Position numbers and translations under genes: made by a program. The notes under the pieces are model-generated. The model searched no databases, had not been told where the DNA came from, and worked only from the letters and a program-made list of their open reading frames with translations. From the IMG/VR virus record IMGVR_UViG_2703718801_000022: DNA of 42,217 nt; one strand, written 5' to 3'. Source of the stretch: a virus. Taxonomy: Duplodnaviria; Heunggongvirae; Uroviricota; Caudoviricetes. Positions 3,281 to 4,395 of the stretch are shown piece after piece; position 1 is the stretch's first letter, and each line of letters begins with the position of its first letter.

Positions 3281-4395
3281 ATGACTGACTCTGTTATCAT
3301 ATACTTGTGGGTTGGATGTTCAATTTTTATATGTGGTCTTTTATTTAGCTCTAATGTTTTTTCTTACATAGACGGGAAAGATCATGATTACTCAAGGGAG
3401 CGGAATCTTGATGGTCTAAGATATATTCTTGCATCCATGGTTGTGTTCCATCACTCAGACTATTTTATTAATTATTTTACAATAAATAAATGGACTACTC
3501 ATTCTGATTTTATTTATTCAATAGGGAAATTTGGCGTAGCGATTTTCTTTTCAATTACAGCTTTTCTTTTCTGGGGAAAGATTCGTAAATCAAAAAATAT
3601 TGACTGGATAAACTTATATAAAGATAGATTTTTTAGAATCGTACCGATGACATATCTTTCATCATTCATTGCTGTATCATATATTATTTTAATGTCAACA
3701 AACCACAACAATATTAGTTTGGATGATTTGTTGAAATGGTTTGACGCAAGTGTATTTGACATAAAACCTAATATAAATGGATTCAATAATTCTGTATTGG
3801 TGTTGTCTGGTGTAACATGGACAATAAAGTGGGAATGGGGATTCTACTTCTCTTTACCAATCATTTATTTTTTACGTTCCAAGCCACTTGAAGCTTCAAT
3901 TGGTATTATGTTTGTATGTATTTTCTACCATCATTTACAGATGCATCATATTGGTATTATTCTGCTTTCGCCTGTGGTATCCTATCTAAGGAGTTATCAT
4001 GCAGAATTTCATTATCAAAAAAAACATCTGACCTCATGCTGTTAGCATCTGTGACTATATTCGTACTGTTAAATCCATCACTTAACAGCACTAGACCGTG
4101 GATAATAGTCACAGTGTTTATGCTTTGCGTGGCTAAAGGCGCAAGCTTGTTTGGTATATTGAATATAAAGGGATTTACTCGTTTGGGGGAGTGCTCTTAC
4201 AGCATTTACCTTTTACAAGGGGTTGTTTTCTATCCTTCATTTGCCTTTATTAAAGATAAATATGATATTAACAACCTAAATATCTCACTCCCAATGATAA
4301 CAATTCTATTCGTAGCACTGTGTGTTTTATCATCACTTACATTTTCTTTTATTGAACGACCACTAATTAAGTACGGAAAAGGAATAAAATTATAA
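3281..4395 (+). pseudogene. Acyltransferase-3 family (O-antigen acetyltransferase-like) gene, frame-broken at an A8 tract
   Basis: AT-rich; multi-TM product with RNLDGLRYILASMVVFHHS and C-terminal LGECSYSIYLLQG motifs; reading frame switches at A8 run 4008-4015 (ORFs 3281-4045 and 3916-4395); one extra A would restore a single ORF. Confidence 0.65.

Follow-up and report, generated by a model that had tools for sequence, protein, structure and literature searches.

The locus considered here raises the question of what has split an O-antigen-acetylase-like gene of a prophage, and whether the break is a heritable loss, an error in the record or one state of a reversible switch. The window, by which we mean the whole stretch of 42,217 nucleotides that was analysed, comprises the E. 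coli chromosomal yfgH-yfgI region (1-1071) followed by a complete phiV10/epsilon15-like (Uetakevirus-type) prophage. Its acyltransferase gene (3281-4395) consists of two overlapping open reading frames (ORFs) in different frames, both of which match the Pfam family Acyl_transf_3 (AT3). The original prediction had correctly recognized an AT3 gene divided between two frames, but attributed the division to a run of eight adenines (A8) and offered a recent pseudogene, a homopolymer sequencing error and slipped-strand phase variation as explanations. The first of these options is the one that the evidence supports. The gene is very probably a recently inactivated prophage AT3 gene that lost one 4-bp TGTT unit, with the A8 run uninvolved and with O-antigen acetylation as the likely role of the intact enzyme.

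The first ORF (3281..4045, + strand) encodes 254 aa, of which residues 1-213 are native and the following 41 are out of frame, ending at the TAG codon at 4043-4045. It scores 65.2 bits over positions 3-162 of the Acyl_transf_3 profile and contains the N-terminal AT3 motifs R47-X10-H58 and R116-x-x-R119. The second ORF (3916..4395, + strand, 159 aa) keeps the native frame for residues 214-372 of the intact enzyme but is cut off from the N-terminal part; it scores 21 bits over profile positions 188-323 and includes G234, the LGECSYSIYLLQG motif (approximately 4183-4221), which had been rightly placed in the other frame, and E360.

Alignment to intact genes puts the true frameshift site in a residual tetranucleotide tract, TGTT-TGTA-TGTA (3909..3920, + strand), approximately 100 nt upstream of the A8 run. 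Five complete E. coli genomes, one of a cattle strain from Germany (13E0780) and four of OkiPb strains isolated in Okinawa from bovine faeces, have the locus at 99.7% identity, with a span of 1245 bp against 1241 bp in the query. Two of them, 13E0780 and OkiPb01680, encode the enzyme in one unbroken CDS of 1119 nt (WP_032314277.1, 372 aa). The intact tract reads TGTT-TGTT-TGTA-TGTA, in the context GGTATTA-TGTT-TGTT-TGTA-TGTA-TTTTC, so that four bases, one TGTT, are absent from the window; the junction of the deletion is ambiguous within 3909-3915. In the alignment to 13E0780 and OkiPb01680 this deletion is the sole difference between the window gene and the intact one, and when one TGTT is taken out of the intact sequence in silico, the result is exactly the window gene with its 254-aa product.

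The direction of the change can be read from the homologues. Residues 214-246 of the intact protein (MYFLPSFTDASYWYYSAFACGILSKELSCRISL...) align without gaps with other Enterobacterales homologues (35-51% identity), and within a family alignment of 14 sequences G234 is invariant and F231 nearly so. Since the homologues follow the second frame after approximately 3916, the intact form is ancestral and the deletion in the window is derived. Over its first 17,162 bp the window differs from the intact-allele prophage of OkiPb01680 by one mismatch and the 4-bp gap, so the deletion is recent. One of the two TGTT units has been lost (x2 to x1, 3909-3915), as is characteristic of replication slippage; the frame shifts after residue 213, a stop codon follows at 4043-4045, and the C-terminal ~160 residues are lost.

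The A8 run itself lies at 4017-4024 (+ strand) rather than at 4008-4015 as had been reported, and it encodes K245-K246 in the native frame (TCA AAA AAA ACA) at its wild-type length. Nine intact 372-codon copies read at the DNA level all have A8 (L001, L002 and seven of L009-L016); they come from 13E0780, OkiPb01680 and seven further assemblies, including an E. fergusonii chromosome. The seven further copies, with up to 7 SNPs, uniformly have A8, TGTT x2, TGTA x2 and CTTTT x2. Every deleted copy examined also has A8, and the run is eight long in 15 of 15 DNA copies read. Given its presence in all intact and all deleted copies, A8 is the ON configuration, the normal in-frame sequence, and the gene is not split by it.

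These observations bear directly on the proposal that the A8 tract is a slipped-strand switch, OFF at A8 in the window and ON at A9, which we regard as very improbable. One added A does give a single ORF close to the anticipated length of about 370 aa (371 aa), which passes the Pfam AT3 model at 76.8 bits, and a 255-aa product of one other isolate (P0083) fits a change from A8 to A7 exactly, so the tract does slip. The A9 fusion, however, carries 33 out-of-frame residues at 214-246 and thereby loses the invariant G234 and the nearly invariant F231; it scores below the intact protein (76.8 vs 81.9 bits), aligns with homologues only with gaps and has nothing in common with them across residues 214-246. 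No A9 allele occurs among the copies read, and A8 runs in the window are no commoner than expected by chance (3 observed vs 4.2 expected in shuffles). P0083 comes from one NCBI accession and 2 contigs, possibly from one isolate, for which a homopolymer read error is possible, and the A8-to-A7 change that it implies is a loss from the ON state. Phase variation at A8 is therefore unsupported in the window. The frame is indeed open from 3281 as far as the A run, as had been described, but it is non-native from codon 214 onward. The record is corrected in that a 4-bp repeat-unit deletion makes the pseudogene, and 'repairing' the A run would yield the wrong protein.

Frameshifts confined to a single assembly are often artefacts, and the real genome could then have an intact gene. 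For this locus such an error is extremely unlikely, as the lesion is a 4-bp unit outside homopolymers rather than a homopolymer length error, and dozens of independent assemblies show the very same allele; the homopolymer sequencing error that had been offered as an explanation is ruled out. The product of the first ORF is exactly a protein (P0075) present in both NCBI and Logan assemblies, with several NCBI accessions, and independent assemblies contribute at least 34 contigs that encode it. Its index entries span 62 blocks of the collection, and the contigs read numbered 24. Deleted-allele DNA was obtained from four assemblies, one of them 100% identical to the window over 13.7 kb, and the assemblies with the identical deleted allele include GCA_051012195.1, GCA_051115875.1, GCA_048100075.1, GCA_012079875.1, GCA_046575765.1 and others. 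An exact-match scan for the deletion junction in a collection with one genome per species returned 0 matches.

The frequency of the allele was estimated from its neighbors. The 24 longest contigs bearing the neighboring holin divide into 20 with the intact allele and 4 with the deleted one. Counted as contigs per exact protein, the holin is found in 287 and the endolysin in 235, the intact acyltransferase variants in 224 + 15 + 2 + 1 and the TGTT-deleted allele in 34. The deletion is a real, heritable allele, which a minority, about 12-16%, of the E. coli assemblies containing this prophage share.

To the right of 6912, related prophages form two haplotypes with ~160 differing sites, whereas to the left of it they are identical, as is the 6.7 kb chromosomal flank. 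Each downstream haplotype is found with the deleted allele and with the intact one, a four-gamete pattern that reflects either recombination or a repeat of the identical slippage event or its reversion, and a simple history of one deletion in one clone thus needs recombination or a second slippage event. The sharp boundary near 6912 is evidence of recombination. This boundary, over 6912-14045, was seen in comparisons with L001, L004 and L005, the last of which has a wholly different module after 9264, and it indicates recent recombination in the immunity/antirepressor region.

The window allele is almost certainly null, judging from its predicted product, which is without the C-terminal ~160 residues bearing L303, G304, S307, S309, Y311 and E360, all invariant in the family alignment. 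A contrary reading is that the split gene still functions, either because the second ORF is translated independently from the ATG at 3916 or because RNA polymerase slips at A8 and brings the C-terminal part back into frame in some transcripts. The ATG at 3916 is the native Met214 codon, runs of A can cause transcriptional slippage, and a transcript with an additional A would have the two frames joined again. Nevertheless, no Shine-Dalgarno-like sequence precedes 3916, the 74 family members, almost all ~340-450 aa long, include no naturally split homologue, A8 is short for efficient transcriptional slippage, and the slippage product would have 33 wrong residues in a conserved membrane segment. 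We therefore give residual function of the split gene hardly any credence.

The window allele is not the sole truncated form, as further truncated products occur in the 90% cluster of the protein. Their lesions were deduced by simulating, in the intact gene, all deletions and all tandem duplications of 1-7 nt and looking for exact agreement with the products; each simulated solution was unique in kind of event. A 238-aa product (P0081, 3 accessions) is matched by a gain of TGTA immediately beside the TGTT site, P0079 and P0080 (6 contigs) by loss of one CTTTT from CTTTT x2 at gene positions 281-292, and the 255-aa P0083 by the change from A8 to A7 already described; a 250-aa product (P0084, 2 contigs) starts at Met123. 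Tract lengths among the copies are therefore two or one for TGTT, two for TGTA, or three as deduced from the product, and eight for the A run, with one A7 deduced from protein. Loss alleles have at least three to four separate origins, and ~15% of carriers have a null allele. For comparison, the clusters of the endolysin, Rz, portal and a 1004-aa protein are all full-length among the matches listed (15 of hundreds to thousands), and the endolysin cluster listing also holds 160-aa entries of the Rz family.

The gene, at 32% GC, contains 10 tetranucleotide and 2 pentanucleotide duplications and one A8, and the mutated sites are the longest repeats of their class within it. The independent frameshifts at short repeats look like ordinary slippage decay of a 32%-GC gene. 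That the acetylase was knocked out several times independently at such repeats suggests that, with the prophage established in its host, acetylation is either dispensable or costly. The pseudogene is ordinary, recent and clonally inherited, and its recurrent inactivation in a bovine E. coli lineage is mildly interesting.

A different reading of the same alleles makes the 17-nt (TGTW)4 tract, possibly with A8, a contingency site, reversible at a low rate, by which lysogens toggle O-antigen acetylation. The tract was mutated twice independently, by loss of TGTT in the window and by the deduced gain of TGTA in P0081 with its 3 accessions, and the deleted and intact alleles lie on two prophage haplotypes with an identical host flank. 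Contingency-gene tracts, however, are typically homopolymers of at least nine or many tetranucleotide units. With A8 as its longest homopolymer and tetranucleotide units of 2 + 2, the gene falls below that length. Just two perfect units are present, Tandem Repeats Finder reported no repeat array over 3200-4450, and 10 tetranucleotide duplications arise in the gene simply from 32% GC, while known switches such as the Haemophilus tracts have many more units. No mixed populations were seen. Recombination explains the haplotypes equally well, and a breakpoint near 6912 (~160 SNPs to its right, none to its left) is needed anyway. We consider a reversible contingency site improbable. Equally improbable is the more specific proposal that (TGTW)4 at 3909-3920, with the nearby A8 and CTTTT x2, provides a low-frequency acetylation switch on which a bovine STEC lineage has drawn repeatedly, perhaps with reversions, in response to immune or phage pressure.

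Two bacterial genes place this variation in context. The oafA gene of Haemophilus influenzae encodes an AT3 O-acetylase reported, in the summary of one review, to be phase-variable via tetranucleotide repeats (Fox et al., 2005, cited in PMC9558356), and this speaks for the contingency reading. The Haemophilus gene and the present one alike specify AT3 surface-glycan acetylases, predicted in the present case, in which gain or loss of a tetranucleotide unit alters the frame, but in Haemophilus the repeat tract is long and dedicated and its reversible switching has been demonstrated, whereas the present gene has two units and Tandem Repeats Finder detects no tract. In Salmonella Typhimurium, a 7-bp deletion in oafA separates O:5-variant clones (PMC5024487). 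It resembles the present lesion as a short, clone-fixed deletion in an AT3 O-antigen acetyltransferase gene that tells near-identical isolates apart, although the Salmonella gene encodes an AT3-SGNH fusion, is chromosomal and lost 7 bp, while the one described here is an AT3-only prophage moron that lost 4 bp. Like the oafA indels in Salmonella, the TGTT-deleted allele could serve as a clone marker.

With the lesion explained as loss of one TGTT unit, the function that was lost can be considered. The intact allele matches Acyl_transf_3 (PF01757) at 81.9 bits (cutoff 31) over profile positions 3-323 of 326 and the O-acetyltransferase family PHROG 3333 with E = 2.8e-43. AT3 proteins are characterized by an R/K-X10-H motif in the first helix and RXXR in the first cytoplasmic loop (PMC9558356), and the corresponding R47-X10-H58 and R116-F-F-R119 are present, with all four residues invariant in the 14-sequence alignment. 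The V-x-x-F-F-x-I-S-G-F motif is partly kept as VAIFFSITAF. A crude hydropathy scan of the intact allele gave 6 strong segments, compared with about ten helices for AT3, and the window copy, whose native frame ends with residue 213, encodes no single ten-helix polypeptide. No family was assigned to the acyltransferase by the NCBIfam search, and the PDB sequence search yielded no solved relative. A strongly hydrophobic N-terminal segment (window 3281-3346, intact residues 4-22) precedes the AT3 domain, which begins at residue 42; this extra helix distinguishes the protein from the 338-aa Oac of phiV10, whose AT3 match begins at residue 6.

The genetic setting points in the same direction. On its left, the acyltransferase slot is bounded by a lysis cassette (1291..3088, - strand) that adjoins yfgH-yfgI and contains genes for an Rz-like DUF2514 protein, a GH19 endolysin and two holin-family proteins, according to the annotation of the identical 13E0780 and OkiPb01680 regions and to Pfam. 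The intergenic region (3098..3280, + strand) separates the divergent holin-like gene from the acyltransferase; its bases 3100-3211 are conserved (82-97%) with phiV10/epsilon15-like phages, and the gene itself is not. On the right, a tailspike or tail-fibre gene (4444..6648, - strand, 734 aa) is convergent with the acyltransferase and occupies the phiV10 tail-fibre position, and the rest of the phage extends to an integrase-sized ORF at the end of the window. The acyltransferase gene, with 32% GC against ~50% in the flanks, has a composition typical of a moron, and it combines the low GC, temperate-phage carriage and proximity to a tailspike gene by which phage seroconversion acetylase morons of the phiV10 Oac, Sf6 Oac and Sf101 OacB type are recognized.

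A second form of switching, Dam/OxyR-type phase variation as in gtr/oafB systems, acts through paired upstream GATC sites (PMC9558356). No GATC occurs between 2847 and 3379, hence none in 3098-3280, and given this lack of upstream sites such regulation of the acyltransferase is not indicated. A promoter scan detected no promoter-like site in the same intergenic region (3098-3280). Downstream, a hairpin with a perfect 14-bp stem (4401..4438; RNA fold -23 kcal/mol, z = -6.5 vs shuffles) lies between the convergent acyltransferase and tailspike genes and is likely a bidirectional terminator, although it is not among the matches of a simple terminator scan.

The closest positional counterpart is the Oac protein of phiV10 (PhiV10p26), which in the accounts given by two citing articles is an O157-antigen O-acetyltransferase conferring superinfection immunity (Perry et al., 2009, cited in PMC9558356 and PMC11854483); the annotation of phiV10 oac states that it 'acetylates the host O-antigen; functions in superinfection immunity'. 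Both genes occupy the same slot, divergent from a holin-like gene and convergent with a tail-fibre or tailspike gene, both encode stand-alone Pfam AT3 proteins, and the upstream intergenic DNA is 84% identical. Nonetheless, the two proteins have no detectable similarity to each other (pairwise BLASTP E = 0.018), Oac has 338 aa as opposed to 372 aa here, the window copy is frameshifted, and phiV10 has a different tailspike receptor domain, so its O-antigen is presumably different as well. The nearest characterized phage homologue by sequence is OacB of the Shigella phage Sf101 (28.8% identity over 90% of the protein, E = 5e-29), which carries out 3/4-O-acetylation of rhamnose in the S. flexneri O-antigen (PMC9558356). 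This too is a phage-borne, AT3-only seroconversion gene, but the identity is low and the phage type and host O-antigen are others.

Most likely, by analogy with phiV10 Oac in the same slot, the intact protein acetylates the host O-antigen, a substrate that we infer from position and family only. The 372-aa enzyme would take acetyl from cytoplasmic acetyl-CoA and place it on the O-antigen, and the acetylated O-antigen may in turn present a changed receptor to the phage's own tailspike, leading to seroconversion and superinfection exclusion. The intact allele resides in 13E0780, a STEC O156:H25 strain of ST300 (PMC5427212, PMC5359238), and in the literature on the O156 antigen no statement on O-acetylation was found. 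A predicted O-antigen acetylase, so far uncharacterised, is thus located in a phiV10-like prophage of bovine STEC.

The tailspike itself is modular. Its residues 1-259 match the PHROG 1640 tail protein (E = 4e-148), the N-terminal ~260 aa being a conserved epsilon15-type domain, and the C-terminal ~470 aa, the receptor-binding part, gave no PHROG, Pfam or NCBIfam match. Other E. coli have this receptor domain joined to head-binding domains of the P22 type (632-635 aa). In L011 (E. coli JWZJ01000023.1) and L014 (E. fergusonii CP070951.1), the acyltransferase, intact and with 0-2 SNPs, has another tail protein, of 729 aa, as its partner. Given that a different tail protein stands beside the same acetylase, in E. 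fergusonii as well, the acetylase and tailspike cassettes are not strictly co-inherited.

Other parts of the prophage also vary. In the OkiPb01680 prophage, an ISEc8 (IS66-family) insertion (L008 17259-19844, at ~17160 of the window) splits the gene for an SLT-domain internal virion protein, and one hypothetical gene is frameshifted besides; in the window the SLT-domain gene is an uninterrupted ORF of 905 aa (14715-17432). In OkiPb01680 the acetylase is thus intact and the phage crippled, and in the window the reverse is the case. A 257-bp inverted repeat with 96% identity (7894-8150 and 9278-9534) sits in the 3' parts of a BRO-N gene (7402-8127, + strand) and an antirepressor gene (9301-10239, - strand), which apparently have a C-terminal module in common in opposite orientation and are a possible substrate for inversion. 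The ORF at 8402-8974, in the prophage accessory region, contains a 546-nt gene that the annotations of 13E0780 and OkiPb01680, both identical to the window here, name a YafO-family type II toxin, with no antitoxin annotated beside it. Finally, a tRNA-Arg gene (anticodon TCT) is located at 27066-27142 between genes of the portal/terminase region, and it is annotated in OkiPb01680 as well.
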